A stretch of DNA of 64,000 bases, from IMG/VR virus record IMGVR_UViG_2675903433_000022, one strand, 5' to 3'. Below, piece by piece: positions 7,764 to 62,224 of this stretch. Position 1 is the stretch's first letter. Every line of letters starts with the position of its first letter. Made by a program: the position numbers and the translations under genes. The stretch comes from a virus (taxonomy: Duplodnaviria; Heunggongvirae; Uroviricota; Caudoviricetes). The notes below the pieces were generated by a model. That model was not told the DNA's origin. It searched no databases and was given only the letters and a program-made list of their open reading frames with translations.

Positions 7764-8296
7764 ACCGCTGACAGCATACACAATCAACTACCGCTGATAG
7801 CATATCGAGAGTCTATCTCACCGCTCACAGCATACTTTACTCGATTTTTTACCGCTGACAGCATACTTAAGACATTGCATGAATAATGTGTACCGGTATG
7901 GGTATAACCAGAACAAAATTACCGCTGGCAGCATACGAATGTCTGACATATGCCATTAATTACCGCTGATAGCATATCCAAACAAAAATTCCTCAATAAC
8001 ACACCGCTGACAGCATACGTTATATCAGGGAACAGCAGGCAATAAATGCCTTTCACTACAAGCAATCAGCGCAATAGCAATAGAATGTTAGTGAGCGCAA
8101 ACCTATATGGAATGCACTCTTCGAGGTTAGTAACCACTGGGGAGGTATGACAGAGCATTGAGTGGTGATAGATGATTTACCGCTCACAGCATACGTTCAT
8201 CTCACTATACCGCTGGTAGCATATCTTTAACCGTTCACAGCATACTTTTCAGAAAAATAGCCGCTGATAGCATACATTTCACCGCTGACAGCATAT
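7764..8296. repeat. iteron array, 12 copies of ~16 bp ACCGCTGACAGCATAC-like repeat (incA-like)
   Basis: Copies near 7764, 7790, 7820, 7851, 7921, 7962, 8003, 8179, 8209, 8230, 8260, 8281 with minor variants; abuts the 3' end of the RepA-like gene. Confidence 0.85.
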
Positions 8297-9390
8297 CAAA
8301 GCAGTTTGAGACTATTGGAAAGGATCTCAATCATCTTGATATTTTCAGGCGTCAAATTCTGCGAAAGTTCGGTTATCTTATTGATAATGTTCTGTTTGGC
8401 ATCAATTTCCCCGGCTTTCTCATCTGGTTTTTTGGGTTCGATGTCTTCAGGTTTTGGCGGTGCGACTTTGAGTTTTGGATTGCGGCTGTGAATCTGGATA
8501 TAGATCGACCGCCCACGCTTAATCTCGCTGTATTCGAGATAGCCCAAATCTTGGAGAGCTTTTAAGCCGTTGCGTATAGTCTGATTCTGCGAGCTGACAT
8601 TCCTGCTACTCAAATTGAGTCGCGCACGCAATCGAGCAAGCGATACCGGCGCAGGCTTGGTTGGAAGACTTTCGATGAAGGTGTACAGAGCCTGTGCTGT
8701 TTCTTTGCGTGGTAGCTTATTGATAACCTTTAACTGCAAAAGAACCTTATGGTCAAAGCGATATAGTTCGGCCAGCTTCGGTTCTGCATAGAACACCACC
8801 GTATCTTTCTGCTCGTTGTAGTCCACGCTATTGATGAGGTGCACCATCAGAAGCGAGATCTTGTTAGAGCCGTCGACGTTCTTTTCTTCATACGTTCTCT
8901 GGAAAGACAGAGTTGTACGCATGATCTTCAAAAGACTGTTTGTAAGCCGGTCGCGGAGTGTTTTGCGGATCTGTGACGATGGATAGCCACAAAACTTCGC
9001 AAATTTCGTGATGCTTAACTCGACACGACCGTTAGGTTCGCCGTATTCTGCCAGCGAACGCACAACGCCCACCCACGTTTTGAAATCATGATCCATGTCG
9101 AGACGAGGACCGGTTATCTTGATATCGGAATAGCCTTCAGAACGGGCTACTTCGAGCTGAACAAGCTCCTTTGAAGCATCGATCTCATTTGGCTTGTTAC
9201 GCTTGCTGTATTTTGTCCCCTTGAGCGTGGGCACGAACAACCCCAGCCGCATCAACGCAATTGGTTGGACTGTATTGTTGCTATTAGGGACAAGTTCCCC
9301 TGTGTACAATTCAAGGGAACCTTCTTCAAAGTTGTCGAGATTATCTTCTACTTCTTTGTTATTTTTACCTTTTTTATTTTTTGTGGACAT
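8296..9390 (-). CDS. iteron-flanked replication initiator (RepA-like)
   Basis: Track ORF 8296..9510; likely true start is the ATG at 9390 (MSTKNKK...) because the longer ORF runs into the upstream iterons; call rests on context, not motifs. Confidence 0.7.
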   Translation of the reverse strand: MSTKNKKGKNNKEVEDNLDNFEEGSLELYTGELVPNSNNTVQPIALMRLGLFVPTLKGTKYSKRNKPNEIDASKELVQLEVARSEGYSDIKITGPRLDMDHDFKTWVGVVRSLAEYGEPNGRVELSITKFAKFCGYPSSQIRKTLRDRLTNSLLKIMRTTLSFQRTYEEKNVDGSNKISLLMVHLINSVDYNEQKDTVVFYAEPKLAELYRFDHKVLLQLKVINKLPRKETAQALYTFIESLPTKPAPVSLARLRARLNLSSRNVSSQNQTIRNGLKALQDLGYLEYSEIKRGRSIYIQIHSRNPKLKVAPPKPEDIEPKKPDEKAGEIDAKQNIINKITELSQNLTPENIKMIEILSNSLKLL

Positions 9391-9410
9391 GTGGACACCT
9401 TTGTCATTCA

Positions 9411-9512
9411 ACCGCTGACAGCATACTTGATTTGCCGCTGGCAGCATACCAAAAACAGTTGGTAGCATACGGCGAACCGTTGACAGACTATCAATTACCG
9501 CTGGCAGCATAC
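9411..9512. repeat. iteron array, 5 copies (incC/origin-proximal set)
   Basis: Same ACCGCTGACAGCATAC family (two degenerate) immediately upstream of the RepA start. Confidence 0.8.
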
Positions 9513-9552
9513 ATGAACATGGCTTCAGGCCAGTCGTGGCGCGGCTTACAGC

Positions 9553-24745: not shown

Positions 24746-25339
24746 ATGATTGCAGCCGAAAAAATCAAACAGCGAAAGCGCGACAACTCTCTTCGTGACC
24801 TCTGGAGAACACCTGATTGGCTGTTTTCTGCCATTCAACGTTATCTTGGAGTGACATTTGATGTTGACGTTGCCTGCAACAAGGACAATGCAAAGCTGCC
24901 TAATTTCATAGGCGTTGAGCGCGATGCTTTGAAATCTGAATGGGGGCAGCCAGGTACAATTGCCTTCCTCAATCCACCCTACTCCAAAATCTCCCCCTGG
25001 ATTGATGCTGCTATACGTGAGCAGGCTCGCGGAGTTACAACAGTGATGCTAATTCCTCAATCCCTCGATACAAAGTGGTATGAGCGTGCAACAGAGTATG
25101 CGAATGAGACGATTATTCTGTCTGGTGGCCGCGTAGCGTTTGTCGAGCCTGACGTCAATTTGGGTCAGGTAGAAGTAAACATCAACCCCGGTGGCAGTAT
25201 GCTCGTTGTTTTTCGAGGATTCTGTCAGGACGCCGGGCACTCTATAAGCAAGATCCCTTTGGACGTCATGAAAAGTCTGGGAGGGTATGATCCTGCGAAT
25301 GTGATCAGGAAAAAAAGACCATCAAAGAAGGCTGCTTAG
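24746..25339 (+). CDS. DNA N6-adenine methyltransferase (phage Dam-like)
   Basis: FLNPPYS catalytic motif and DLWRTPDW region typical of the small phage Dam-type methyltransferases. Confidence 0.75.
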   Translation: MIAAEKIKQRKRDNSLRDLWRTPDWLFSAIQRYLGVTFDVDVACNKDNAKLPNFIGVERDALKSEWGQPGTIAFLNPPYSKISPWIDAAIREQARGVTTVMLIPQSLDTKWYERATEYANETIILSGGRVAFVEPDVNLGQVEVNINPGGSMLVVFRGFCQDAGHSISKIPLDVMKSLGGYDPANVIRKKRPSKKAA

Positions 25340-25360
25340 TTTGTTCTGGCGTCTGTAATT

Positions 25361-25419
25361 AGCCTGCTTCTGTATATATAAATAACTACATATTAATTAT
25401 TAATATACGGAAGCAGGCT
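25361..25419. repeat. long inverted repeat (17-bp arms around an AT-rich loop), copy 1 of 2
   Basis: AGCCTGCTTCTGTATAT ... ATATACGGAAGCAGGCT with a T/G wobble position; near-identical element at ~55760-55816. Confidence 0.6.
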
Positions 25420-25524
25420 GTTTTGTATCAGAGACTCCAGACCTGAACATCACTACAGAATCCACTAGAACCCCTTCCCAGACGCTTTAAAATCGATTTT
25501 ATGAACCACTTTAAGGAAACTAAC

Positions 25525-39079: not shown

Positions 39080-40180
39080 TCACACTGCGCGGAATGCGAT
39101 TTCGCCAGGTATTACTTCACCTTGCCAATACATTTGGGCAGCAACGCGATCTGCGAGGTCACGATAAATAGCCGTAAATTCGCTATCTGGACGACTAATA
39201 ACGGTTGGTGTTCCGTTATCCAGATCTTCACGAAGAGAGATATGAAGTGGCATTTGGCCTAACAACTGCGTGTTGTATTTCTCGGCCAGTTTCTGTGCGC
39301 CACCGGTGCCAAAAATTGGCTCGTGATGACCGCAGTTACTGCAAATATGCATACTCATGTTCTCGACAATACCGAGCACCGGAACCTCGACTTTCTCGAA
39401 CATCACAATGCCTTTTTTCGCATCGATCAACGCGATGTCCTGCGGCGTAGTTACCACAACCGCACCAGTTACAGGAATGTTCTGCGCCAGCGTCAATTGA
39501 ATATCACCAGTGCCCGGCGGCATATCGAGAACGAGATAGTCCAGATCAGGCCATAGAGTTTCCTGCAACATCTGCATTAACGCCTTGCTCGCCATCGGAC
39601 CACGCCACACCATCGCATTGTCGTCAGTTACCAGATAACCAATTGAATTGGTTGCCAGTCCATGAGACATAATCGGTGCCATGTGAGTACCGTCCGGTGA
39701 GGTTGGACGTTGGTTTTCCGCGCCAAGCATGGTTGGAATTGATGGCCCGTAGATATCGGCATCCAAAATACCAACTTTCGCACCTTCAGCAGCCAACGCC
39801 AGTGCCAGGTTTACCGCCGTGGAGGATTTACCAACGCCGCCCTTGCCTGAGCTGACGGCGATAATGTTCTTAACGCCATTAATGCCTGGTTGGTTTTTGA
39901 CGCGCTTAAGCGTGGCAATGTTGTACGACAGCTTCCAGTCGATAGCCTTTGCGCCAGTGATACGGAGCAGATCACCACTACATTGCTCTTTCAGGTCTTC
40001 AAAAGGCTTATTCCACACGAAAGGCATGATTAGTTCGACATGCAGTGTGTCATCCATCAACGCAACATGGTGTAACGCTTTAAGCGTAGTCAGGTTGTGT
40101 TTCAGGGTTGGGTGCTGAAAATTAGCCAGCGTACCGGCTACCATTGCTCTCAGGGCATCCGGCGATTTGGACTCGCTCAT
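39080..40180 (-). CDS. apbC: Fe-S cluster carrier ATPase Mrp/ApbC
   Basis: 366 aa; deviant Walker A SGKGGVGKS; reads as near full-length enterobacterial Mrp by recall. Confidence 0.9.
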   Translation of the reverse strand: MSESKSPDALRAMVAGTLANFQHPTLKHNLTTLKALHHVALMDDTLHVELIMPFVWNKPFEDLKEQCSGDLLRITGAKAIDWKLSYNIATLKRVKNQPGINGVKNIIAVSSGKGGVGKSSTAVNLALALAAEGAKVGILDADIYGPSIPTMLGAENQRPTSPDGTHMAPIMSHGLATNSIGYLVTDDNAMVWRGPMASKALMQMLQETLWPDLDYLVLDMPPGTGDIQLTLAQNIPVTGAVVVTTPQDIALIDAKKGIVMFEKVEVPVLGIVENMSMHICSNCGHHEPIFGTGGAQKLAEKYNTQLLGQMPLHISLREDLDNGTPTVISRPDSEFTAIYRDLADRVAAQMYWQGEVIPGEIAFRAV

Positions 40181-40337
40181 CCCGTCTCCTTTATTTTAAT
40201 TTGCGCAATTGTCGCCTTGTAGTGTACTCCAGCTACGGCATTTAATCATTTATGAGAAATGCTGTTATCACATGGCAGACATAAGGCCATTTTGTTACTA
40301 TCAAGCCCCTTTTCACTACAAAGAAGTAATGCCTACT

Positions 40338-42371
40338 ATGACCCAAGTCGCGAAGAAAATTCTGGTGACGTGCGCGCTGCCGTACGCTAACGGCTCAATC
40401 CACCTCGGCCATATGCTGGAGCACATCCAGGCTGATGTCTGGGTTCGTTACCAGCGAATGCGCGGCCACGAGGTTAATTTCATCTGTGCCGACGATGCCC
40501 ACGGTACGCCGATCATGCTGAAAGCACAGCAGCTTGGTATCACACCGGAGCAGATGATTGGCGAAATGAGTCAGGAACACCAGACTGATTTCGCAGGCTT
40601 TAACATCAGCTATGACAACTATCACTCGACGCACAGCGAAGAGAACCGTCAGTTGTCTGAGCTTATCTATACTCGCCTGAAAGAGAACGGTTTTATTAAA
40701 AATCGTACCATCTCTCAGCTGTACGACCCGGAAAAAGGCATGTTCCTGCCGGACCGTTTTGTAAAAGGCACCTGCCCTAAATGTAAAGCGCCAGATCAAT
40801 ACGGCGATAACTGTGAAGTCTGCGGCGCGACTTACAGCCCGACTGAACTGATCGAGCCGAAATCGGTAGTTTCTGGTGCTACGCCGGTAATGCGTGATTC
40901 CGAACACTTCTTCTTTGATCTGCCTTCTTTCAGCGAAATGTTGCAGGCATGGACCCGCAGCGGTGCGTTGCAGGAGCAGGTGGCAAACAAAATGCAGGAG
41001 TGGTTTGAATCTGGCCTGCAACAGTGGGATATCTCCCGTGACGCACCTTACTTCGGTTTTGAAATTCCGAACGCGCCGGGCAAATATTTCTACGTCTGGC
41101 TGGACGCGCCGATTGGCTACATGGGTTCCTTCAAGAATCTGTGCGACAAGCGCGGTGATACCACCAGCTTCGATGAATACTGGAAGAAAGACTCCACCGC
41201 CGAGCTGTACCACTTCATCGGTAAAGATATTGTTTACTTCCACAGCCTGTTCTGGCCTGCCATGCTGGAAGGCAGCAACTTCCGCAAGCCGACCAACCTG
41301 TTTGTTCATGGCTATGTGACGGTGAACGGCGCAAAGATGTCCAAGTCTCGCGGCACCTTTATTAAAGCCAGCACCTGGCTGAATCATTTTGACGCTGACA
41401 GCCTGCGTTACTACTACACTGCGAAACTCTCTTCGCGCATTGATGATATCGATCTCAACCTGGAGGATTTCGTTCAGCGCGTGAATGCCGATATCGTGAA
41501 CAAAGTGGTTAACCTGGCCTCCCGTAATGCAGGCTTTATCAACAAGCGTTTTGACGGCGTGCTGGCAAGCGAACTGGCTGACCCGCAACTGTACAAAACC
41601 TTTACTGATGCCGCTGAAGTGATTGGTGAAGCATGGGAAAGCCGCGAATTTGGTAAAGCGATTCGTGAAATCATGGCGCTGGCTGATCTGGCTAACCGCT
41701 ATGTCGATGAACAGGCTCCGTGGGTGGTGGCGAAGCAGGAAGGACGCGATGCCGATCTGCAGGCGATTTGCTCTATGGGCATTAACCTGTTCCGCGTGCT
41801 GATGACGTACCTGAAACCGGTACTGCCGAAACTGACTGAACGTGCAGAAGCATTCCTGAATACAGAACTGACCTGGGATGGTATCCAGCAACCGCTGCTG
41901 GGCCATAAAGTGAATCCGTTCAAGGCACTGTATAACCGTATCGATATGAAACAGGTGGAAGCACTGGTGGAAGCATCCAAAGAAGAAGTGAAAGCCACAG
42001 CTGCACCGGTAACTGGCCCACTGGCTGACGACCCGATTCAGGAAACCATCACCTTTGACGACTTCGCCAAAGTTGACCTGCGTGTGGCGCTGATTGAAAA
42101 CGCGGAGTTTGTCGAAGGTTCTGACAAACTGCTTCGCCTGACGCTGGATCTCGGTGGTGAAAAGCGTAATGTCTTCTCAGGCATCCGTTCCGCTTATCCA
42201 GATCCACAGGCACTGATTGGTCGTCACACCATTATGGTGGCTAACCTGGCTCCGCGTAAAATGCGCTTCGGTATCTCTGAAGGCATGGTGATGGCTGCTG
42301 GCCCCGGCGGGAAAGATATCTTCCTGTTAAGCCCGGATGCTGGTGCTAAACCTGGCCACCAGGTTAAGTAA
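40338..42371 (+). CDS. metG: methionyl-tRNA synthetase
   Basis: Track ORF 40209..42371, true start ATG 40338 (MTQVAKKIL); HIGH-type motif [14 protein letters not shown], zinc knuckles CPKC/CEVC and C-terminal tRNA-binding domain. Confidence 0.95.
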
Positions 42372-47395: not shown

Positions 47396-47870
47396 GTAGA
47401 AAAAAACATCGGGAAGCTGGTGGAATCCAACCAGCGGTTGTCGGACAGGTGAGCGGGGAAAATTATGATGACTTTCGTCGCCTGAGACATCCAGATTTCT
47501 TTCGTAGCGTAATCACATACGTGATTAAGTGGTGTGATTATGTGAAAAATCACGCGCACATAATACGCGAGCGGATACGGAACAAAACAAAATGCCGATC
47601 CGCGCCGACAATTAAACGCGGACACATAGCAAGAATAAAAGCCAATGATTAACCATACACCATAACGCAATATAACGCGATTTAAGCGCGTTAATGCGCT
47701 AAGTAATGGGTATGTACTGGTAAGGATATAAAAGCGCGTCTATGGCGTTATTTTGGCGCTTATTTTTATGTTGTTGGCTTGAGTCAAAGACAATAAAAAA
47801 AGCGCCATCATTGGCGCGTTATGGTGGAAGTATTGGAAACGAAAAAAGCGCCCATAGTGGGCGCTCGATT

Positions 47871-48324: not shown

Positions 48325-48372
48325 CTTTAAAGCTCCTTTAAAGCGCCCACTATGGGCGCTTGATTCCATTAA

Positions 48373-52543: not shown

Positions 52544-53242
52544 GTGGATTGTAGCAATAAAATGGATGTAAAAATCACGATTTTGCAGGTTGATGTTGCC
52601 AACCTTCGCCCGAATACCTGGAACACCAATTCGGTTGGTGCGCAGAATTTTGAAAAACTGAAAGGTTCTATCGAAAAATTGGGCTTTTTTAAGCCAATTT
52701 TGGCTCGTGAACTTGAAGATGGATTTTTTGAAATCCTCGGCGGCGAACATCGCTGGCGTGCTGCTATTGAGCAAGGAATTTCAACGGTTCCGGTGCTTTC
52801 TGTGGGCAAAATTAGCGATGTCGTAGCTAAACAGATGTCACTGGTGGACAACGAGCGATACGGTGAAGACGACCAAATCGCATTGCAACGCTTCATTGAA
52901 GAAATTCAGTCAGAACTTGACTATCAACTGTCTGAAATCGCCCCGTATGACGACGAAATCTCGATGGTTTTAGCAAAAGAGGCGGCAATCGACCTTGAAG
53001 CACTGGAGGCGTTGTCTCGTGGTAGTGATGAGCCTGTCGATACCGACAAACGAGAGAAAACCGAACGTGTGGGGGCGGAACATCAGACCATGCGCTTCAA
53101 AGTAACTTTCGATGCGTCAGATCGTGTTGCAGAAACCATAAAAAACATCATCAAAGAGCAGGCTATTAACACCGGTAATGAAATGGAGAACGCTGGTGAG
53201 GCTCTGGTGTGGCTGGTCGACTACTACAAGGAGCGTATGTAA
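52544..53242 (+). CDS. ParB-like nuclease domain protein 1 (start may be ATG 52562)
   Basis: ParB N-terminal domain signature ILGGEHRWRAA. Confidence 0.7.
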   Translation: MDCSNKMDVKITILQVDVANLRPNTWNTNSVGAQNFEKLKGSIEKLGFFKPILARELEDGFFEILGGEHRWRAAIEQGISTVPVLSVGKISDVVAKQMSLVDNERYGEDDQIALQRFIEEIQSELDYQLSEIAPYDDEISMVLAKEAAIDLEALEALSRGSDEPVDTDKREKTERVGAEHQTMRFKVTFDASDRVAETIKNIIKEQAINTGNEMENAGEALVWLVDYYKERM

Positions 53243-53910
53243 TGACCAAAAAGTTTGAAATCGTATATCGCGACCCGGCAGATCTTATTCCCTATGAGAT
53301 GAATGCCAAAAAGCATGATGAACAGCAGATCCGAGATCTGGCCGCAGCCATTAAAAAGCGCGGATTTGACCAGCCAATTACGGTCGATAAGAACGACGTA
53401 ATTATTACTGGCCACGGCCGCCGTGAGGCTGCAATTTTTGCTGGACTTGAGCGCGTGCCGGTTATTGTTCGCGATGATCTCAGTGATGACGAGGTTCGTG
53501 CGAAGCGCCTTGAAGATAACCGACTTGCCAGCATTGATTACGATGCAATTAAGCTACAGAAAGAGCTTGAGTCGCTTGTTCTGGACGATATCGAGGTTTT
53601 CGGCTTTGAAGAGCGTGAGTTGAATGTTCTCGTTGGCAGTATGACAGAAGAAATGGACACCGACTCGCTAGTTATCGATCTTGGCGAAGAAACTAAACGA
53701 CAGAAGGATGAACACACCGAGATCAGTCGCGAAGTTGCAGCGGAAGAAGTACGTGTTGTCGACGTATTGGGCTTTAAAACGCTTCCTGCTGGCTCTGCCA
53801 TTGTTGTTGGTGATTTGCTTGCCCACATGGAAGAAATGACGGGAGAGAGCGGGGTAGACGCATTTGTGGCATATGCGGAGAAGATCTCTTCCGGGGAGAT
53901 GGCTGCATGA
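53242..53910 (+). CDS. ParB-like nuclease domain protein 2
   Basis: Track ORF 53209..53910, ATG 53242; signature ITGHGRREAA. Confidence 0.7.
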   Translation: MTKKFEIVYRDPADLIPYEMNAKKHDEQQIRDLAAAIKKRGFDQPITVDKNDVIITGHGRREAAIFAGLERVPVIVRDDLSDDEVRAKRLEDNRLASIDYDAIKLQKELESLVLDDIEVFGFEERELNVLVGSMTEEMDTDSLVIDLGEETKRQKDEHTEISREVAAEEVRVVDVLGFKTLPAGSAIVVGDLLAHMEEMTGESGVDAFVAYAEKISSGEMAA

Positions 53911-54572
53911 GCAAATACATCATCAACGTATCGTTTCAGACTCGCGTAAATAAAACCACGCGCACATTGGAAATCGCTGAGTCGTTCGGGCTTGGCCTGG
54001 ACGAAAAAGAGTGGACGCTTTACGACAATCTGGAGCTGGAAGTGAAGCAGGGCGATGTGGTGTACATCACCGGCCAATCCGGTTCCGGCAAATCCGTTGT
54101 GCTGCGCGAGTTGCAACGACAGATGAAGGATGAAGGGCTGTCTGTAGCCTCCATCGATGATTTTACCTTCGATAATGAGGTTAACGTCATCGATCAGTTG
54201 GGCAAAACGACCAGTGATGCGCTTGGGTTGTTATCTATGGCTGGTCTGAACGATGCATATCTGTTTGTTCGCAAGCCTTCTGAAATGTCAGACGGCCAGA
54301 AATATCGTCTCAAGATTGCCAAACTGATTGAGTCAGGCGCTAAAGTGTGGGCTGCTGACGAGTTCGGCGCTGTTCTCGACCGTGTAACCGCTCAGGTTGT
54401 GGCGTCTAACCTCCAGCGTGCCGCTCGAAAGGTTGGTGCGACGGTAATGGTGGCGACGACTCACGAAGACCTGAAGAACGCGCTGCGCCCGGATATGCAG
54501 ATCACCAAGCACTACAAAGAACGCGTGAAGGTGGAATATCACAATGGTAGTCATGATGAGGTCCATTCATGA
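53907..54572 (+). CDS. ABC-type ATPase domain protein (no transmembrane domain)
   Basis: Walker A GQSGSGKS, signature-like SDGQKYR, Walker B VWAADEFG, H-loop TTHE. Confidence 0.65.
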   Translation: MSKYIINVSFQTRVNKTTRTLEIAESFGLGLDEKEWTLYDNLELEVKQGDVVYITGQSGSGKSVVLRELQRQMKDEGLSVASIDDFTFDNEVNVIDQLGKTTSDALGLLSMAGLNDAYLFVRKPSEMSDGQKYRLKIAKLIESGAKVWAADEFGAVLDRVTAQVVASNLQRAARKVGATVMVATTHEDLKNALRPDMQITKHYKERVKVEYHNGSHDEVHS

Positions 54573-55459
54573 CGGACATCATCATTAAACGCTACCGCCC
54601 TGAAGAGTTTCCGCGTCATCTGGACTTTCTGGAGCGAATGACTGTTACAAAGGGAACTGTAGAGGACTGGCACGCTCTTAAGTCGCTTCACTACAAAACA
54701 GACGGCAAACCTTTCGCGCCAACTTACTATCGCTGCGAACTTGATGACCGTCTGGTGGGCGTCGTGGTTATGGCTTACCCGAAACTACTGTTGGCACCTC
54801 GCCACCGCATGTTTCCTAAGTTGAAACCAACCACTAATACCACCGTGGCTAACCAGTACTGGGGTCGGTACGTGAATAACAACTTTGCGGTGATCAGTCG
54901 CTCAGTTGTGGATACTCAGTATCGTGGCGTAGGCGTCTCTTATCGAATGATTAACCTGGTTAGCAGGATGCATGACCGGCCAATCATTGAGATCCAGTCC
55001 TCGATGAGCAAATACAATCCCTTCGCCATGAAAGCAGGGTTTAAGTTCATCCGCCCTGAGCGACCGAAGAGCTATGAAAGTGCACTGCGTGTATTCCAGC
55101 GCCATTTCCGTTCCGACCCGGGTGATAACGAGGCGATCGTCAAAGAGTTGTTCGCAATGAGCGAGTCTCGTCGTCGCCGTGCACTGCGTGATCTGGTGGC
55201 GGACTACCACAAGAACAGTTCCCTGGCAAAAGCTGGGCGGAATCGTGGCACTACGATTCAGGACATTGCCGACAGTCTGGTGGACGAGGCCAGCATTGTG
55301 AAGCTGCTCAAGGACATTCACAACCTGAGCTTTACGTCTCCGTTGTATGGTGTGTACCGAAACCCTGACTTTGGCCGTCGACTGCCTGACACGCTGCCAC
55401 TGCTGGCATTCGACAAACAACCTTTGGATAAACCGTTAGAAATTGCTTTACCGGCATAA
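54569..55459 (+). CDS. GNAT-like acyltransferase domain protein with C-terminal extension (tentative)
   Basis: Motif A-like VVDTQYRGVGVSYRMINLV and motif B-like NPFAMKAGFKFI. Confidence 0.45.
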   Translation: MTDIIIKRYRPEEFPRHLDFLERMTVTKGTVEDWHALKSLHYKTDGKPFAPTYYRCELDDRLVGVVVMAYPKLLLAPRHRMFPKLKPTTNTTVANQYWGRYVNNNFAVISRSVVDTQYRGVGVSYRMINLVSRMHDRPIIEIQSSMSKYNPFAMKAGFKFIRPERPKSYESALRVFQRHFRSDPGDNEAIVKELFAMSESRRRRALRDLVADYHKNSSLAKAGRNRGTTIQDIADSLVDEASIVKLLKDIHNLSFTSPLYGVYRNPDFGRRLPDTLPLLAFDKQPLDKPLEIALPA

Positions 55460-55468
55460 GGATTTGCC

Positions 55469-55735
55469 ATGACGTTAACCGACAAACAAAAGGACATCAT
55501 CAAAACGCTCAATCTCGGTTATGAGCGAGGTCATCTACTTGATCTGGACGAATTGCTTGAAGTTTTGCCGTACAAGACAACCAAGCAAAGTATCCAGTTC
55601 TCAATTCGCGCTCTGATAAAAAAGGGGCTGGTGGAGAAAGGGCATACGCGCCAACGCAGTGACAATCGCTATCACCGCCGGACTCTTGGGTTAACCACTT
55701 TAGGTCGAGCCAAAGCGAAGTTACTGGTGATGTAA
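55469..55735 (+). CDS. small winged-helix DNA-binding protein (tentative)
   Basis: 88 aa; helix-turn-helix-like segment and basic C-terminus. Confidence 0.4.
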   Translation: MTLTDKQKDIIKTLNLGYERGHLLDLDELLEVLPYKTTKQSIQFSIRALIKKGLVEKGHTRQRSDNRYHRRTLGLTTLGRAKAKLLVM

Positions 55736-55759
55736 TCGGTCTGGGAGCTTATTTAAAGA

Positions 55760-55816
55760 CCTGCTTCTGTATATATAAATAATAAGTAACTTATTAAATA
55801 TATACGGAAGCAGGCT
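55760..55816. repeat. long inverted repeat, copy 2 of 2
   Basis: CCTGCTTCTGTATATAT ... ATATATACGGAAGCAGG, near-identical arms to the element at 25361-25419. Confidence 0.6.
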
Positions 55817-55930
55817 TCGTAAGACATGCCAGACCTAATTAAACACCCCAGAAAACAAGTTGGTTAGCAGATGCAGTAAACAAGTTGTTTTAGAGCGCAT
55901 GGACGCGCTCTGTGTGTTTTAGAGGGATCT

Positions 55931-56563
55931 ATGACGGTCGAAAAAGACGAGGTAAAAACTCGCCTGACACCAGCGGAGTGGGCCGAAGCTGAAGCCAAAT
56001 GGACGTCAGGCGAATATACACTCTCAAAGCTGGAGGAAGAGTACGGCATTCGTCGTGAAACACTCTCCAGACATTTCAAAAAGCGAGGATTAGAGAAAGG
56101 CGCGGACTCTGTTGGGAAGATGGTTCGTGAGTCTCTTAAATCTGACGCAGAGCTTCGCGCTAAAGCCCGTGCGGAAAAGATAGAAGAACGTCGTACACGT
56201 TATGACGGCTGGGCGTATGCGTTGGGGCAGATGGTGATGGTCGAAGTCACTACGGCCAAACGTGAGGGTAAGCCTTTAGGGGCGATTGAGGATTCTCTCA
56301 AGAGCTTACAGAGAGCCAGTAATACCCTTGCAAAATGCTTTGAAGTTTCGTCCAAAGCATTGGGCATGGATCATGCGGAAAATGACGAGGAAGAAATTCC
56401 GAACCTGGTATTTGGTGAGCTTACGCCTTCCCAGGTGGCGAAATTACGTCAGGAAGACGACGAGCCTGAAATCATCGATGACGAATTGCTTGAGACGTTG
56501 GAAGAAGAAGCTCTAAGCGAATTTGATGCGACAGATGATGGAATTGAAGGGGAGGACGAATAA
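55931..56563 (+). CDS. terminase small subunit (putative)
   Basis: 210 aa immediately upstream of and overlapping the large terminase start; acidic C-terminus; call by position. Confidence 0.5.
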   Translation: MTVEKDEVKTRLTPAEWAEAEAKWTSGEYTLSKLEEEYGIRRETLSRHFKKRGLEKGADSVGKMVRESLKSDAELRAKARAEKIEERRTRYDGWAYALGQMVMVEVTTAKREGKPLGAIEDSLKSLQRASNTLAKCFEVSSKALGMDHAENDEEEIPNLVFGELTPSQVAKLRQEDDEPEIIDDELLETLEEEALSEFDATDDGIEGEDE

Positions 56564-57819
56564 TGGCAATCCCGTCCTCGCTCAGTCTTGTGCAACTGCA
56601 TTCTGGACAGATGAAAGTCTTCCAGTCTCCGCATCGATTTAAAGTTGTTTGTGCTGGTCGACGCTGGGGAAAATCCCGGTTGTCGATCTCCACTATTATT
56701 CGTGCGGCGGCAAAGGAAAAAAAGCAAAGAGTCTGGTATGTCGCTCCTACTTACCAGATGGCTCGCCAGATTTTGTGGGACGATCTACAGGAAGTTCTGC
56801 CTCGTAAGTGGGTTAGGAAAAAGAACGACACCACGATGACAATCGTGTTGAAGAACGGTTCGGAGATCGCCCTCAAAGGTGCTGATAAGCCTGACACTCT
56901 GCGCGGCGTAGCGTTGCATTTTGTAGTGCTTGATGAATTTCAGGATATGAAGGCTGACACCTGGTACAAGGTGTTACGACCTACTCTTTCATCGACACGC
57001 GGCGGTGCACTGATCATTGGTACGCCAAAAGGCTTCTCGGAATTTCACAAACTGTGGACTATAGGCCAGAACGTAGAGCTGCAAAGAAAGGGACAGTGGA
57101 AGAGCTGGCAGTTTGTAACTGCCGATTCTCCGTTTGTACCTACGGCGGAAATTGAAGCTGCTAAGAATGATATGGACCCGAAATCGTTCGCTCAGGAGTA
57201 CCTGGCGAGCTTTGAGAACATGTCCGGGCGCGTTTACTACCCGTTCGATCGTAACGTGCATGTAAAACCGCTTCAGTTCAACCCTCGGTTGCCTATATGG
57301 GTAGGGCAGGACTTCAACATTGACCCGATGTCTTCAGTAATTTTGCAACCTCAGCCAAATGGTGAGCTATGGGCAATTGATGAATTGGTGCTCTTTTCCT
57401 CTAACACGGCAGAGGTTTGTGATGAGCTTGAGAGACGCTTCTGGCGCTGGAAATCACAGATAACGGTATTTCCAGATCCGGCAGGTGCTTATCGCCAACA
57501 TGCTCGCGGGGAGTCTGACGTCGACATATTCAAAGAGAAGGGATTCTTACGTGTCGATTATTCGAAAAAGCACCCGCCAATTGCGGATCGTGTTAATGCT
57601 GTTAACCGAATGCTGATGACCGCATCTGGAGATATCCGGTTGTATATCGATCCGAAGTGCAAGCATTTGATTGATTCACTGGAAAAAGTCATCTACAAGC
57701 CTGGAACACGAGATATGGATAAGACAGGTGGCATTGAGCATAGTGCAGACGCATTGGGCTATCCAGTACATCGTAGGTATCCAGTCAAAAACCGTGTTAT
57801 TCTTGGTGGTTCTCGATAG
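56563..57819 (+). CDS. terminase large subunit
   Basis: Terminase-type Walker A VCAGRRWGKS and Walker B VVLDEFQD; C-terminal nuclease-sized domain. Confidence 0.85.
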   Translation: MAIPSSLSLVQLHSGQMKVFQSPHRFKVVCAGRRWGKSRLSISTIIRAAAKEKKQRVWYVAPTYQMARQILWDDLQEVLPRKWVRKKNDTTMTIVLKNGSEIALKGADKPDTLRGVALHFVVLDEFQDMKADTWYKVLRPTLSSTRGGALIIGTPKGFSEFHKLWTIGQNVELQRKGQWKSWQFVTADSPFVPTAEIEAAKNDMDPKSFAQEYLASFENMSGRVYYPFDRNVHVKPLQFNPRLPIWVGQDFNIDPMSSVILQPQPNGELWAIDELVLFSSNTAEVCDELERRFWRWKSQITVFPDPAGAYRQHARGESDVDIFKEKGFLRVDYSKKHPPIADRVNAVNRMLMTASGDIRLYIDPKCKHLIDSLEKVIYKPGTRDMDKTGGIEHSADALGYPVHRRYPVKNRVILGGSR

Positions 57820-61303: not shown

Positions 61304-62224
61304 ATGCCAGAACAAAAGATGAAGATTACGGAAGAGGCATTTTCGGATTTTACGGGGCATATGTGCCGTGCCGGATTTACCAATTCTATCTCCGATGAAC
61401 CTTTAACCGAGCGGCAACAAAGTCAGCTATCTGCTTGTTTGCAGGCGGTTCCCCTCTCCCAATCCGTAAACATAACCCCGGCTTCACCGTCAGTTTTGGT
61501 TGGGAAAACTGTTCAACTTAGTGCAGGTATTAGTATGGGTAAGAGTGCCAGTTCATTCACCTGGAAGTCAGCCAATGACCAAATTGCAACCGTTAACGGC
61601 ACTGGATTAGTAACTGGCGTAGCACCAGGCAAAGTAAAAATTACTGCAACTGATCAGGAAACCCAGCTTTCCGCTTCAGTGGAAGTCACCGTAAATCCGG
61701 TAGCCGTTCAATCCGTAACGGTAACGCCAGAATCAACGTCTGTTGAGAAAGGGAAATCAGTCAGTCTGAAAGCGAATGTTCAGCCGTCAAATGCGACGAA
61801 TAAGGCTGTTACCTGGTCTTCCAAAAATGAAGATAAGGCAACGGTAGACCAGAGCGGGAACGTAACTGGTGTAGAAGTTGGCACTGCGACGATTGAGATC
61901 GTTTCCCAAGATGGTAGCAAAAAGGCAACTGCAACGGTGGAAGTAACTGCGCCTGTTGTGGCTGTTACCGGCGTCGAAATCGACCCAAATAGCACAACCG
62001 TTGAGGCAAACAAAACTGTTCAGCTGACCGCAAATGTCGAGCCGGCAGGAGCCACAAATAAAACCGTTACTTGGGAATCCAAAAATACCGAGTTTGCAAC
62101 GGTTGACAGCGAAACCGGTGTTGTAACTGGTGTTGCGGCTGGTACTGCCACAATCGAGGTTACTACCCAAGATGGTAGCCACAAAGCGACAGCAACTGTA
62201 GAAGTTACTGCCGCACAGGAATAA
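61304..62224 (+). CDS. Ig-like (Big_2-type) repeat protein, probable capsid decoration protein
   Basis: Three tandem ~85-aa repeats with the pattern VTVTP.ST.V..GK.V.L.A.V.P..ATNK.VTW.S.....ATVD..G.VTGV..GTATI. Confidence 0.7.
   Translation: MPEQKMKITEEAFSDFTGHMCRAGFTNSISDEPLTERQQSQLSACLQAVPLSQSVNITPASPSVLVGKTVQLSAGISMGKSASSFTWKSANDQIATVNGTGLVTGVAPGKVKITATDQETQLSASVEVTVNPVAVQSVTVTPESTSVEKGKSVSLKANVQPSNATNKAVTWSSKNEDKATVDQSGNVTGVEVGTATIEIVSQDGSKKATATVEVTAPVVAVTGVEIDPNSTTVEANKTVQLTANVEPAGATNKTVTWESKNTEFATVDSETGVVTGVAAGTATIEVTTQDGSHKATATVEVTAAQE

Follow-up and report, generated by a model that had tools for sequence, protein, structure and literature searches.

P1, a phage-plasmid with the same hosts as the element described here, carries about 20 C1 operators. 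These are asymmetric sites, GC-containing and A+T-rich, dispersed singly or as inverted pairs (monovalent and bivalent Op), and the annotated ones precede lytic operons: the helicase ban, the late activator lpa and the lytic replicon. In the pac sites of P1 and SPP1, binding boxes flank a central cleavage region; that of P1 lies inside pacA and includes Dam-methylated hexamers, an IHF site and annotated cleavage positions. The parS site of P1 has box A and box B arranged around an IHF site. The sopC-type sites of N15 and the KorB OB sites of RK2 are short contiguous palindromes of 13-16 bp, scattered over the genome near operon starts, where the bound partition protein also regulates transcription. 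Several dispersed origins are used by T4 and SPP1, and HSV-1 has three palindromic origins (oriL and two oriS), each with an A+T centre between inverted UL9 boxes.

SSU5-type phage-plasmids are common in clinical Enterobacterales, where they carry resistance and virulence cargo. The stretch of DNA analysed here (64,000 nt, hereafter the window) is an SSU5-like phage-plasmid. Two repeats pointed out in it by a first-pass annotation are members of a hitherto unannotated family of palindromic DNA sites of about 100 bp, usually three per genome, which is specific to SSU5/pHCM2/pMT1-type phage-plasmids. Plasmids bearing the palindrome include relatives of Salmonella Typhi pHCM2 and Yersinia pestis pMT1. 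To judge from sequence comparison, the sites look like protein-recognised control sites rather than plain terminators. Their conservation, the strongest of any non-coding sequence found in this analysis, their position before three operon blocks and their co-evolution as a set provide a testable handle on at least one of three functions of these phage-plasmids: the control of lysis and lysogeny, the lytic origin or the packaging signal.

The palindrome family and its conservation

Each copy comprises a 55-bp near-perfect palindrome with GC-rich arms (CCTGCTTCYGTATATAT) on either side of an almost pure A+T core of 35 bp. It consists of two inverted, asymmetric half-sites of about 25 nt, in which a GC-rich outer part (GCCTGCTTCYG) is followed by TATATATAAATAA. 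Most copies also possess inverted outer boxes (TCTGG/CCAGA) about 20 nt further out. Both repeats are present in the window as annotated (Table 1): the 17-mer CCTGCTTCTGTATATAT occurs exactly at 25363 and 55760, and its reverse complement at 55798-55814 with one mismatch (the T.G position) and at 25401-25417 with three. These four matches on the two strands compare with 0.15 expected, and none of 100 shuffled sequences reached four. The two copies are direct repeats with 82% ungapped identity over 57 nt, and their arms are 21-25 nt apart. The arm length of 17 bp first given for both applies to copy 2; copy 1 has 15-bp arms with an AG/CT extension. Since the 'loop' of copy 2 is itself palindromic (AATAAGT-A-ACTTATT), its whole 55 nt form a near-perfect palindrome.

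Table 1. Palindrome features in the window
Feature	Position	Strand	Sequence and basis
Copy 1 (context A), inner palindrome	25361..25419	no strand	AGCCTGCTTCTGTATAT-(A+T core)-ATATACGGAAGCAGGCT; sequence, repeat and fold analysis
Copy 1, outer left box	25344..25349	no strand	TTCTGG; read from sequence
Copy 1, outer right box	25437..25442	no strand	CCAGAC; inverted partner of TTCTGG, pairs with it in fold
Copy 1, T-rich tail	25418..25426	+	CTGTTTTGT; directly 3' of right arm, terminator-like
Copy 2 (context B), inner 55-bp palindrome	55760..55814	no strand	CCTGCTTCTGTATATAT-AAATAATAAGTAACTTATTAA-ATATATACGGAAGCAGG
Copy 2, outer left box	55738..55747	no strand	GGTCTGGGAG, including GGTCTGG at 55738-55744; outer stem in fold
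Copy 2, outer right box	55829..55835	no strand	CCAGACC; outer stem in fold

The surroundings of both copies agree with the first description. The Dam gene (24746-25339; domain match Pfam PF05869) precedes copy 1, on whose far side lies an ORF of 76/84 aa (25501/25525-25755). Copy 2 is preceded by an 88-aa ORF (55469-55735) and followed by two AAACAAnTTGTTT sites (at 55853 and 55878), a GAGCGC..GCGCTC hairpin (55891-55912) and terS (55931-56563); its right arm ends 117 nt ahead of the terS ATG. In SSU5 the corresponding arm ends 116 nt before the first ATG.

The third copy is located outside the window, in near-identical genomes (about 75115-75170 in PhiR41_1, PV340561), and precedes the ORF246-DnaB-like helicase-primase operon (context C). 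Here the right arm is 116-122 nt from the first ATG in 57 contexts, and again 116 nt in Moellerella. All three copies have the same orientation and lie between co-directional genes, at roughly even distances of about 32, 30 and 46 kb. The third copy is downstream of the parA-ORF119 operon, with a gap of about 0.9 kb in PhiR41_1 and 15 nt in K. michiganensis, and a GIY-YIG gene adjoins it in E. coli-type genomes. Its left edge is an exact junction between conserved and hypervariable DNA, with at least 14 unrelated left flanks, and thereby marks the precise border of a cargo-insertion hot spot. The original description, a conserved element present twice, was right about reality and conservation and understated the rest, as the element is larger and has three syntenic copies per genome.

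A BLAST search found the palindrome in 800 PLSDB plasmids, and it is kept across Escherichia, Salmonella, Klebsiella, Enterobacter, Citrobacter, Cronobacter and Yersinia pMT1; no record of these relatives annotates it. Regions were also collected by their flanking genes, a selection in which the palindrome itself played no part; both arms are present in 48 of 57 distinct regions with Dam synteny (context A), the other nine being distant lineages in which the arms are altered or missing. The palindrome was present in 46 of 47 distinct terS-upstream regions (context B), the 47th locus ending at a contig end, and in all 57 ORF246-upstream regions (context C). In context B, 39 of the 46 palindromes measure 55 nt in all. 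The close relatives obtained through synteny, without exception, have the three copies at fixed syntenic positions, and a TCTGG box about 20 nt ahead of the left arm is found again in contexts A and B and in many cases of context C. The core in the window and that in SSU5 share 94.5% identity, compared with 73-81% for flanks and neighbouring genes, coding and intergenic alike. At the level of sequence comparison this demonstrates purifying selection on the palindrome core, and the 'loop' is conserved as strongly as the stem. The non-phage plasmid pMT1 retains copy 2 intact. Absence from related genomes had been named in advance as an outcome that would speak against the element; the search in relatives gave strong conservation instead.

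Hairpins, half-sites and operon boundaries

If transcribed, the palindrome would yield a long hairpin. RNA folding of 116-nt windows on the + strand gave -41.6 kcal/mol for copy 1 (z -7.4) and -48.4 kcal/mol for copy 2 (z -9.6), DNA folding gave -16 kcal/mol per 59-nt strand (z -7 to -9), and five of the six base pairs at the stem foot are G-C. T-rich tails (at least 5 T in the 9 nt directly after the arm) follow the palindrome on the + strand in 38/48 distinct relatives in context A and in 52/57 at the third copy (TCTTTT); on the minus strand the counts are 0/48 and 14/57. At copy 2, where the window reads CTTCGTAAG, a + strand tail was found in none of 46 relatives. With tails on one strand and at two of the three sites, the copies are at most unidirectional terminators there. 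The initial proposal of strong bidirectional terminators thus keeps its tails at copies 1 and 3 and loses its bidirectionality, the signal being mainly on the + strand and missing at copy 2.

The sites share with intrinsic terminators a stable hairpin with a GC-rich base, a coding-strand T tract at copies 1 and 3, and a location at operon ends. Unlike them, the palindrome forms a hairpin of 55 nt, far longer than usual, and its primary sequence and 'loop' are kept across genera; copy 2 has no T tract, in distant lineages the spacer is 52 to about 105 nt long, and a consensus terminator scan called neither window copy. A terminator defined by structure only was rejected in view of the conserved core and loop and of the solitary arms and long spacers in Moellerella. 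An extended hairpin of 95 nt, to which folds of single sequences had pointed, was likewise discarded as the unit, own-flank complementarity (8.1) being close to that between elements (7.5) across 26 lineages; the flanks of context C do not pair, and the short outer boxes are the only shared part of the flanks. The possibility of a small RNA, also raised at the outset, finds no support: Rfam 15 covariance models gave no match at or above the gathering score in the whole window, copy 2 producing only sub-threshold chance matches to eukaryotic miRNA hairpin models, and a conserved sequence with a variable spacer argues against a structure-only RNA. A phage RNA polymerase with terminators of its own was considered and dismissed, the large ORFs being fimbrial usher, CobT, MetRS and similar. 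No homologue of the sigma factor of an Acinetobacter relative was found in this element.

The variation of the arms bears on whether the palindromes act as RNA. Arm positions 5, 6, 8 and 9 vary independently on either arm, with A.A, G.A, C.A and T.C mismatches, and the independently mismatched arms include the dominant Klebsiella type. Symmetric double changes (C-G to T-A; T-A to G-C) occur in some lineages, L373 and L374 have other co-varied arm pairs, and the outer stem of copy 2 has two changes on both sides in lineage L054/L017; in context B of the close clade, no covariation was found in the inner arms. With uncompensated mismatches and a few symmetric double changes side by side, covariation alone cannot separate a hairpin from a symmetric protein site. 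The first arm catalogue was biased, as the scan demanded one exact arm, and synteny-based sets were used afterwards.

In distant lineages, Moellerella among them, the same three positions bear sites of this architecture; the arms have another, lineage-specific sequence that all copies share. Moellerella pW18-2-b has the arms GCCTAGCTCCCATA(GTATTTATATAA) at all three sites, outer boxes CCGCAG/CTGCGG, A+T spacers of about 52, 105 and 86 nt, and three solitary half-sites. Across lineages the spacer ranges from 21 to about 105 nt and is always A+T-rich. Sequence comparison thus establishes a lineage-specific, concerted change of the three copies. Arms shared within a lineage, together with a variable spacer, point to sequence-specific recognition of paired sites and not to a generic hairpin; the variable spacer and the solitary arms are what protein sites would show and are at odds with a hairpin whose geometry is fixed. 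Decay of the left arm marks the K. oxytoca/K. michiganensis lineage, in which canonical intrinsic terminators are found next to what is left of the palindrome or a short distance away. The Acinetobacter relative lacks the GC-armed palindrome and has at least 17 copies of a different palindrome instead. A 14-mer scan of IMG/VR for the L373-type arm gave chance matches only, and the Moellerella plasmid was taken in its place.

Hairpins acting purely at the RNA level, whether as intrinsic terminators, as RNase III processing sites or as mRNA-stabilising 3' hairpins at operon ends, could account for the very stable folds, the co-directional genes around every copy, the strand-specific U-tracts in contexts A and C and the canonical terminators near degenerate remnants. 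Gene conversion, together with correction of the palindrome by template switching, would then keep the copies similar. Arm pairing is preserved by the symmetric double substitutions of some lineages, and the T.G wobble is tolerated in + strand RNA of this genome. We nevertheless regard this explanation as quite unlikely: the U-tract is absent from copy 2 in all 46 relatives, 'loop' conservation equals that of the stem, transversion mismatches are frequent in the arms, and no Rfam family matches. The long spacers and solitary half-sites of Moellerella form no comparable hairpin, and the outer boxes are conserved although the spacers between are no more self-complementary than across elements.

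We tentatively favour the view that the palindromes may be composite, cis-acting, three-copy control or insulator sites at operon boundaries, an account that is possible rather than probable. A protein encoded by the phage-plasmid would recognise the half-sites sequence-specifically, and the sites would serve as boundary or control elements where three major transcription blocks begin: after Dam, ahead of the terminase/structural operon and ahead of the helicase-primase operon. In the plasmid state they may insulate or repress those lytic operons. At the Dam and helicase copies, a hairpin followed by a U-tract would probably terminate read-through from upstream genes. Consistent with such a role are the non-chance and conserved nature of the sites, their three syntenic and co-oriented copies, the independent change of half-sites and the concerted change of copies, as well as the fixed distance to operon starts, the strand-specific tails in contexts A and C, and the terminators near decayed arms. 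Unrelated cargo DNA has been inserted to the exact left edge of the third copy, a pattern that a site protecting the replication operon from its upstream surroundings would be expected to give.

Several observations may be read otherwise. An A+T core between inverted sites is equally typical of replication origins and pac sites, symmetric double arm changes are also expected under selection for a hairpin or cruciform, and the concerted evolution could stem from gene conversion between copies instead of a shared factor. A scan for sigma-70-type promoters found none within or beside the window copies, so that the link to transcription initiation is one of position.

The closest precedent for operon-boundary control, the P1 C1 operators, differs in sequence and number: the 17-bp consensus ATTGCTCTAATAAATTT stands against arms of GCCTGCTTCYGTATATAT, and the many P1 sites against three paired sites that overlap no recognisable sigma-70 promoter. 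The heptamer TTGCTCT is common to the P1 consensus and the K. michiganensis variant only. The P1 system itself was rejected, with its consensus unmatched and C1, Coi and Lpa not encoded; tblastn searches with P1 C1, Lpa and Coi as binding-protein candidates against the E. coli-type, Moellerella, K. oxytoca and Acinetobacter elements returned nothing better than E = 0.7. Neither the integrase nor ORF246 nor ORF119 matched anything in the PDB, and Pfam and PHROGs assigned no function to the small neighbouring ORFs. A LexA box (CTGT-N8-ACAG) was also rejected, the halves CTGTATAT and ATATACAG being 41 nt apart; most relatives have CCG/CGG in place of CTG/CAG.

Origin and packaging readings

A different role would make the A+T core a DNA-unwinding element between inverted initiator-binding sites formed by the arms and outer boxes. 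The three copies would be lytic origins used after induction, leaving plasmid maintenance to the separate Rep3_N initiator with flanking iterons (window 7775-9513). The architecture, an A+T-rich unwinding element beside repeated inverted arms, matches that of origins, as architecture only: an almost pure A+T core stands between GC clamps, the spacer is always A+T-rich and of free length, and the inverted sites are lineage-specific. One copy is directly upstream of the ORF246-DnaB-like helicase-primase operon, and among the products of the element is a T4-like set for replication and recombination (gp32-like, RecA-like, SbcCD-like, RNase H and Pol III alpha). HSV oriS and oriL, and the archaeal ORB-DUE-ORB arrangement, similarly have a central A+T stretch between inverted boxes, and HSV also has three copies per genome with one beside replication genes; these organisms and proteins are entirely unrelated, and the likeness is an analogy and not a test.

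Lytic origins are nonetheless a rather doubtful explanation. No initiator was found, ORF246 having no recognisable domain; an origin would account neither for the constant 116 nt to the first ATG nor for T tails on a particular strand, two copies lie a long way from any replication genes, and conservation of the core at the nucleotide level exceeds the need of an unwinding element. GC skew is positive throughout, with no switch at the copies, and is uninformative in a genome transcribed nearly one way. By analogy, the sites might be multiple lytic origins of herpesvirus type or cruciform-prone entry points for recombination-dependent replication forks, a speculative idea of similarly low probability. 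In its origin version, recognition would fall to an unrecognised initiator such as ORF246, whose gene is always 116-122 nt from one copy; in its cruciform version, the SbcCD-like, RecA-like and gp32-like machinery of the element would make forks at palindromes. If true, this would be the first defined lytic origin system of the SSU5/pHCM2/pMT1 group, with a symmetric origin architecture unusual in bacteria.

Packaging, which like recombination was among the roles first suggested for the repeats, offers another function for an A+T core between boxes. As pac sites, the palindromes would be bound by TerS at arms and boxes on both sides and cut by TerL in the A+T core, and headful packaging tolerates several co-oriented sites. 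Copy 2 resembles the pac sites of P1 and SPP1 in its position beside the small terminase gene, just upstream of terS, and in its repeats on both sides of a central region; all copies are co-oriented as well. The GenBank records of SSU5 (virion-derived) and Cyrano both open within the core of copy 2, at a distance of 8 nt from the dyad; the SSU5 record ends ...ACTTATTA and starts AATATATACGG. TerL is small (418 aa) and of the phrog_2/phrog_10250 type. Compared with the K. oxytoca type, a lineage with different arms, TerS is 59% identical and TerL 91%, and TerS therefore diverges much faster.

Against packaging, the SSU5 record is equally likely to start at a break in the assembly, at a hairpin or repeated sequence, and the Cyrano record probably just follows the orientation of SSU5. 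There is one pac site in P1 and SPP1 and there are three conserved copies here; copies 1 and 3 are not near terminase genes, and two copies at least 30 kb from these genes have no precedent among characterised pac phages. The palindromes are also without GATC, unlike the P1 site with its methylated hexamers. The T tails and the fixed distances to other operons would be unexplained, and the palindrome is intact in pMT1, which is not a phage. A full-text literature search on SSU5 termini, operators or the palindrome repeat, part of which was too broad, found nothing. On this balance we consider pac sites unlikely.

Possible roles in partition and recombination

The third copy, downstream of parA-ORF119, and copy 2, which follows an operon with two ParB_N-domain proteins, raise the question of partition or genome-organising sites bound by the ParA partner ORF119 (119 aa) or by the ParB_N-domain proteins. 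The roughly even spacing of the copies would suit such a role, and their symmetric two-box layout recalls P1 parS. Yet nothing ties ORF119 or the ParB_N proteins to the arms, and the window copies are not near parA. The dispersed motif AAACAAnTTGTTT, with 16 matches against 0.49 expected and present ahead of parA as well, fits a KorB-like dispersed-operator role better. Sites of the N15 sopC and KorB OB kind are contiguous, whereas the palindromes here have half-sites of about 25 nt and a variable A+T spacer. Finally, pMT1 uses a different partition system and yet keeps copy 2, which we count against partition. This function is very unlikely.

Recombination at the palindromes, as site-specific sites, as cruciform or hairpin targets of the SbcCD-like or GIY-YIG nucleases that seed recombination-dependent replication, or as relics of selfish repeats, appears highly improbable. 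The left arm of the third copy coincides exactly with the junction between conserved DNA and at least 14 unrelated left flanks; in E. coli-type genomes the GIY-YIG gene lies beside this copy, and the element encodes a 5'-3' exonuclease alongside its SbcCD-like and RecA-like proteins. Neither this junction nor the start of the SSU5 and Cyrano records is direct evidence for recombination or packaging. The inner arm CTTC(Y)GTATA also resembles loxP (CTTCGTATA). However, an active site present as three direct repeats would delete 30-kb segments, no copies with hybrid flanks were seen, and the fixed synteny across genera argues against mobility. A core site for a tyrosine recombinase of the lox/dif type (11-13-bp elements, 6-8-bp spacer) was rejected, as the spacer here is at least 21 nt; a search with the integrase found nothing similar, either in Cre or in any other chain of the PDB. 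A protelomerase target like telRL of N15 was also set aside, with three copies per genome, circular related records and no protelomerase in the annotations read.

In practical terms, the palindrome, as a repeat of 55-100 bp that is present three times, will interrupt the assembly of these plasmids from short reads. As a separate observation, CMS-2020a and Klebsiella records have an insertion at window positions 54540-54570, which is near copy 2 and unrelated to the palindrome.

A conserved palindromic element at three syntenic sites

The first-pass annotation had placed two long inverted repeats in the window, one following the Dam gene (copy A) and one preceding terS (copy B), and both are present at those positions. 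Their 17-mer arm is matched four times, against 0.15 expected, a number reached in none of 100 shuffles. Copy B is a near-perfect 55-bp palindrome whose 'loop' is itself palindromic (AATAAGT-A-ACTTATT); copy A, whose core is less symmetric, has 15-bp arms extended by AG/CT. Outer inverted boxes lie about 20 nt further out (GGTCTGG/CCAGACC for B, TTCTGG/CCAGAC for A).

Scanning IMG/VR for the exact pattern gave more than 120 loci, almost all of them SSU5-like, which sort into three flanking contexts: after Dam, before terS and, outside the window, a third (copy C). In PhiR41_1, the parA-ORF119 operon and then a minus-strand GIY-YIG gene lie to the left of copy C, and to its right is an operon on the + strand whose genes are ORF246, a DnaB-like helicase and a primase. 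Polarity relative to the genes is identical for the three copies, which cut the genome into blocks of replication and nucleotide metabolism (C to A), small ORFs with many AAACAAnTTGTTT motifs (A to B), and structural genes plus par (B to C). As a pattern scan favours intact arms, retrieval was redone via the flanking proteins: the element occurs upstream of terS in 46 of 47 distinct regions (the remaining locus is truncated at a contig end), upstream of ORF246 in all 57, and downstream of Dam in every region from a close relative. BLAST with the 99-nt element matched 800 PLSDB plasmids, from Klebsiella, Escherichia, Enterobacter, Yersinia pestis (pMT1), Salmonella, Citrobacter and Cronobacter; among the matches listed, no annotated feature underlies it. 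The element is neither annotated in the plasmid and phage records examined nor mentioned in the searchable literature. Dispersed palindromic cis-sites are already known from phage-plasmids; no earlier description appears to exist of this family, of its synteny at three sites or of its concerted evolution.

The 55-nt core is 94.5% identical between the window and SSU5, compared with 80.7% for the upstream ORF88, 73% from stop codon to left arm, 79.8% from right arm to the terS ATG and 76.8% for terS. Core length is tightly kept, 39 of 46 context-B variants measuring 55 nt; many E. coli-type genomes have the same core sequence in B and C, and pMT1 and SSU5 share an identical copy B. Within the close clade, arm positions 5, 6, 8 and 9 change on a single arm at a time, yielding A.A, G.A, C.A and T.C mismatches; the dominant Klebsiella type, CCTGCGTCTG...CGAAAGCAGG, is among these mismatch-bearing arms. 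Identical changes on both arms occur in a few lineages (CCTGCTTTCG/CGAAAGCAGG and CCTGCGTCTG/CAGACGCAGG).

Coordinates of the element and of other features (window positions unless a genome, record or locus is named; L124 is a PhiR41_1 locus)
Feature	Position	Strand	Remark
Copy A	25361-25419		
Copy B	55760-55814		
Copy C	PhiR41_1 about 75115-75170		
Cargo region left of copy C	L124 21233-22115		
Hairpin TAGAGCGC-ATGGAC-GCGCTCTG, then TGTGTGTTTT	55891-55922		terminator-like
AAACAAnTTGTTT sites	3282, 17607, 27860, 28589, 29303, 32211, 37453, 42457, 42508, 43394, 44588, 45073, 45975, 46739, 55853, 55878		
AAACAAnTTGTTT motif before parA	L124 20100-20117		
TA(A/G)GT-N4-ACTTA	2134, 10480, 19882, 24716, 26935, 31014, 45477, 52530, 59324; L124 22253; Aeromonas locus L127 about 697 and 1047		
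Rep3-type plasmid initiator (Rep3_N)	8296-9510	minus	iterons on both sides
Three 32-nt iterons	7775-7806, 7947-7978, 9482-9513		core ACTACCGCTGATAGCATA
Dam	24746-25339		
Mrp/ApbC-type ParA-family NTPase	39080-40180	minus	PF10609, E = 2e-102
Methionyl-tRNA synthetase, full length	40209-42371	+	E = 5e-166
25-nt sequence with palindrome AGCGCCCACTATGGGCGCT	47841-47865, 48342-48366		inverted, 476 nt apart
Two ParB_N proteins and ABC-type ATPases	52544-55459		
terS and terL	55931-57819		
89-nt direct repeat	61862-61950, 62123-62211		within ORF 61304-62224
Fimbrial usher and chaperone cluster	L124 29076-32269		
Sigma-70-family sigma factor	NZ_CP061522 82337-83002		between MoxR-like ATPase and dnaE

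RNA folding and possible transcription termination

Both window copies form very stable folds, whether as RNA or as single-stranded DNA, which is trivial for any palindrome and uninformative on function. Rfam holds no family matching the element. In the consensus fold of context B, covariation is restricted to the outer stem of one lineage, and the extended 95-nt hairpin of single folds is not general; a left flank is no better a match for the right flank of its own element (8.1) than for that of another (7.5).

A T-rich tail follows the right arm on the + strand in 38 of 48 variants of A, 52 of 57 of C and none of 46 of B; the corresponding minus-strand counts are 0/48, 14/57 and 18/46. Since the tail sequences differ between lineages (CTGTTTTGT, CTTTTTAAG, TCTTTTAAA, TCTTTTTCT), T-richness itself appears to be selected, and copies A and C are therefore plausible intrinsic terminators on the + strand. 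Of the earlier proposal of strong bidirectional terminators, at most a one-strand role at A and C is thus left; by the same tail counts it fails for B, and no copy is bidirectional.

A hairpin or terminator acting through structure only fails to explain the conserved primary sequence and 'loop', the concerted lineage-specific change across copies, the spacers of ~105 nt, the solitary half-sites and the outer boxes. These features also tell against plain RNA hairpins kept uniform by gene conversion, a distinctly improbable account to which the stable folds and the strand-specific U-tracts at A and C would otherwise lend support. The element is no artefact and is more than a mere pair of terminators.

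Deeper relatives and possible functions

Plasmids of K. oxytoca and K. michiganensis (TerS 59-65% identical) retain the right half-site and A+T stretch at all three sites (reverse complements CCTGGCTCTGTATAT, CCTGGCTCCTATAT and CCTGACTCTGTATAT); their left arm is degenerate, or missing at site A, with canonical terminators next to the remnants or close by. Two other lineages (L373, L374) have perfect or near-perfect inverted arms of other sequence (GCCTTGCTCCCATA and GCCGTGYTCCSATA) with spacers of ~50 nt. Moellerella wisconsensis pW18-2-b carries arms GCCTAGCTCCCATA(GTATTTATATAA) at all three syntenic sites, with A+T spacers of about 52, 105 and 86 nt, outer boxes CCGCAG/CTGCGG in place of TCTGG/CCAGA, and three solitary half-sites in further intergenic regions. 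An Acinetobacter relative (TerS 32% identical) lacks a GC-armed element and has a palindrome, TATTAGTAAGCGCTTACTAATA, in at least 17 copies at gene junctions, one copy preceding terS. From this comparison, both the order of parts (outer box, arm, A+T core, arm, outer box) and the three positions they occupy are judged ancient; recognition sequences shift jointly in all copies of a lineage and spacer length is free. The Acinetobacter plasmid also encodes a sigma-70-family sigma factor, for which the E. coli-type, K. oxytoca and Moellerella elements have no homologue.

The most economical reading, which we hold with good confidence, is that of paired, asymmetric sites around an A+T core, recognised sequence-specifically. 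From right arm to first start codon the distance is 116-122 nt at C (116 nt to the ORF246 homologue in Moellerella), 116-117 nt at B and 108-120 nt at A. Our best-supported guess, a tentative one, is that they serve as boundary or control sites ahead of three lytic operons. An element-encoded protein would bind the half-sites, the transcribed palindrome at A and C would contribute an intrinsic terminator, and the two together would shield these operons from plasmid-state and cargo transcription coming from upstream. Functionally, the nearest parallel is the set of dispersed mono- and bivalent C1 operators of P1; membership in that system was rejected, as its consensus is different and no homologue of C1, Coi or Lpa was found.

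Lytic replication origins are a somewhat unlikely alternative, suggested by the A+T core flanked by inverted sites, the copy at the helicase operon, an analogy to the three-origin layout of HSV and the existence of a separate plasmid-maintenance replicon, the Rep3_N gene with its iterons, which is distinct from the palindromes. Centromere-like sites, to which parA-ORF119 near copy C points, are very unlikely. In the loci upstream of ORF246 homologues (L217-L296), at least 14 unrelated left flanks meet conserved sequence exactly at the left arm of copy C, and the right side is conserved and of fixed length. This exact cargo junction, with the nuclease and recombinase genes encoded, would suit recombination-related or selfish palindromes, an idea we find hardly credible. 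The cargo hot spot directly left of copy C holds the GIY-YIG gene in E. coli-type genomes and other ORFs elsewhere.

That the palindromes are pac sites is unlikely: copy B adjoins terS, but there are three copies. Positions 1 and 103299 of the SSU5 record (JQ965645) correspond to window 55797/55796 in the A+T core of copy B, where the Cyrano record (OV696614) also opens, 8 nt right of the dyad centre; a record may open there because the DNA physically ends at this point (pac or cos) or because a hairpin or repeat broke the assembly. Also in favour of pac sites, TerS is far more diverged than the neighbouring TerL where the arms differ (59% versus 91% identity to the K. oxytoca type, NZ_CP138770; the comparison also covered Moellerella NZ_CP093251). 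Alignment is confined to residues 1-174 of TerS (~90% identity) in many relatives from Klebsiella, Enterobacter and Yersinia; the last 36 residues, at the C-terminus, are thus swapped, which suggests a mosaic joint inside or around terS.

Other dispersed motifs and gene content

The 13-bp palindrome AAACAAnTTGTTT, usually inside AAGAAAACAAnTTGTTTAA, has 16 window matches at one mismatch or fewer (0.49 expected), most of them ~20-40 nt upstream of a + strand start codon. It is kept before terS in SSU5, pMT1, K. oxytoca and K. michiganensis and is probably a promoter or operator motif specific to this phage-plasmid group. In one repeat family (D4; 32211, 37453, 45975) the extended motif has the opposite orientation, and a terminator hairpin precedes some copies (families D2 and D4). 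The terminator-like hairpin near terS sits downstream of the two AAACAAnTTGTTT sites and ahead of the ribosome-binding site of terS; this order of promoter-like motif, terminator and late operon resembles antitermination-controlled late operons such as lambda PR'-tR'. A second, 14-bp palindrome, TA(A/G)GT-N4-ACTTA, lies mostly in gene junctions, immediately 5' of start codons; the site at Dam, for instance, is 30 nt ahead of the ATG. Its half-sites also occur in the cores of copies B and C, spaced by 1 nt instead of 4, and a related palindrome, TAGTAAGCGCTTACTA, is present at least 17 times in the Acinetobacter relative.

The window belongs to an SSU5/pHCM2-type phage-plasmid, given its identity to Escherichia phages CMS-2020a, PhiR41_1 and Cyrano (98-99%), Salmonella phage SSU5 (~78%) and Klebsiella phage-plasmids (76-80%). 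Nearly all genes are on the + strand. The gene set includes a 5'-3' exonuclease and a RecA-like protein, with an SbcCD-like pair and NrdAB so named from the annotation of relatives. The ParA-family NTPase and methionyl-tRNA synthetase genes are host-like cargo; PhiR41_1 carries a fimbrial usher and chaperone cluster too. The AGCGCCCACTATGGGCGCT-bearing pair brackets small ORFs of a minus-strand gene cluster and probably represents paired terminators. The 89-nt repeat (76% identity, 261 nt apart) looks like a tandem domain duplication, in an ORF whose K. oxytoca homologue is annotated as an Ig-like domain protein.
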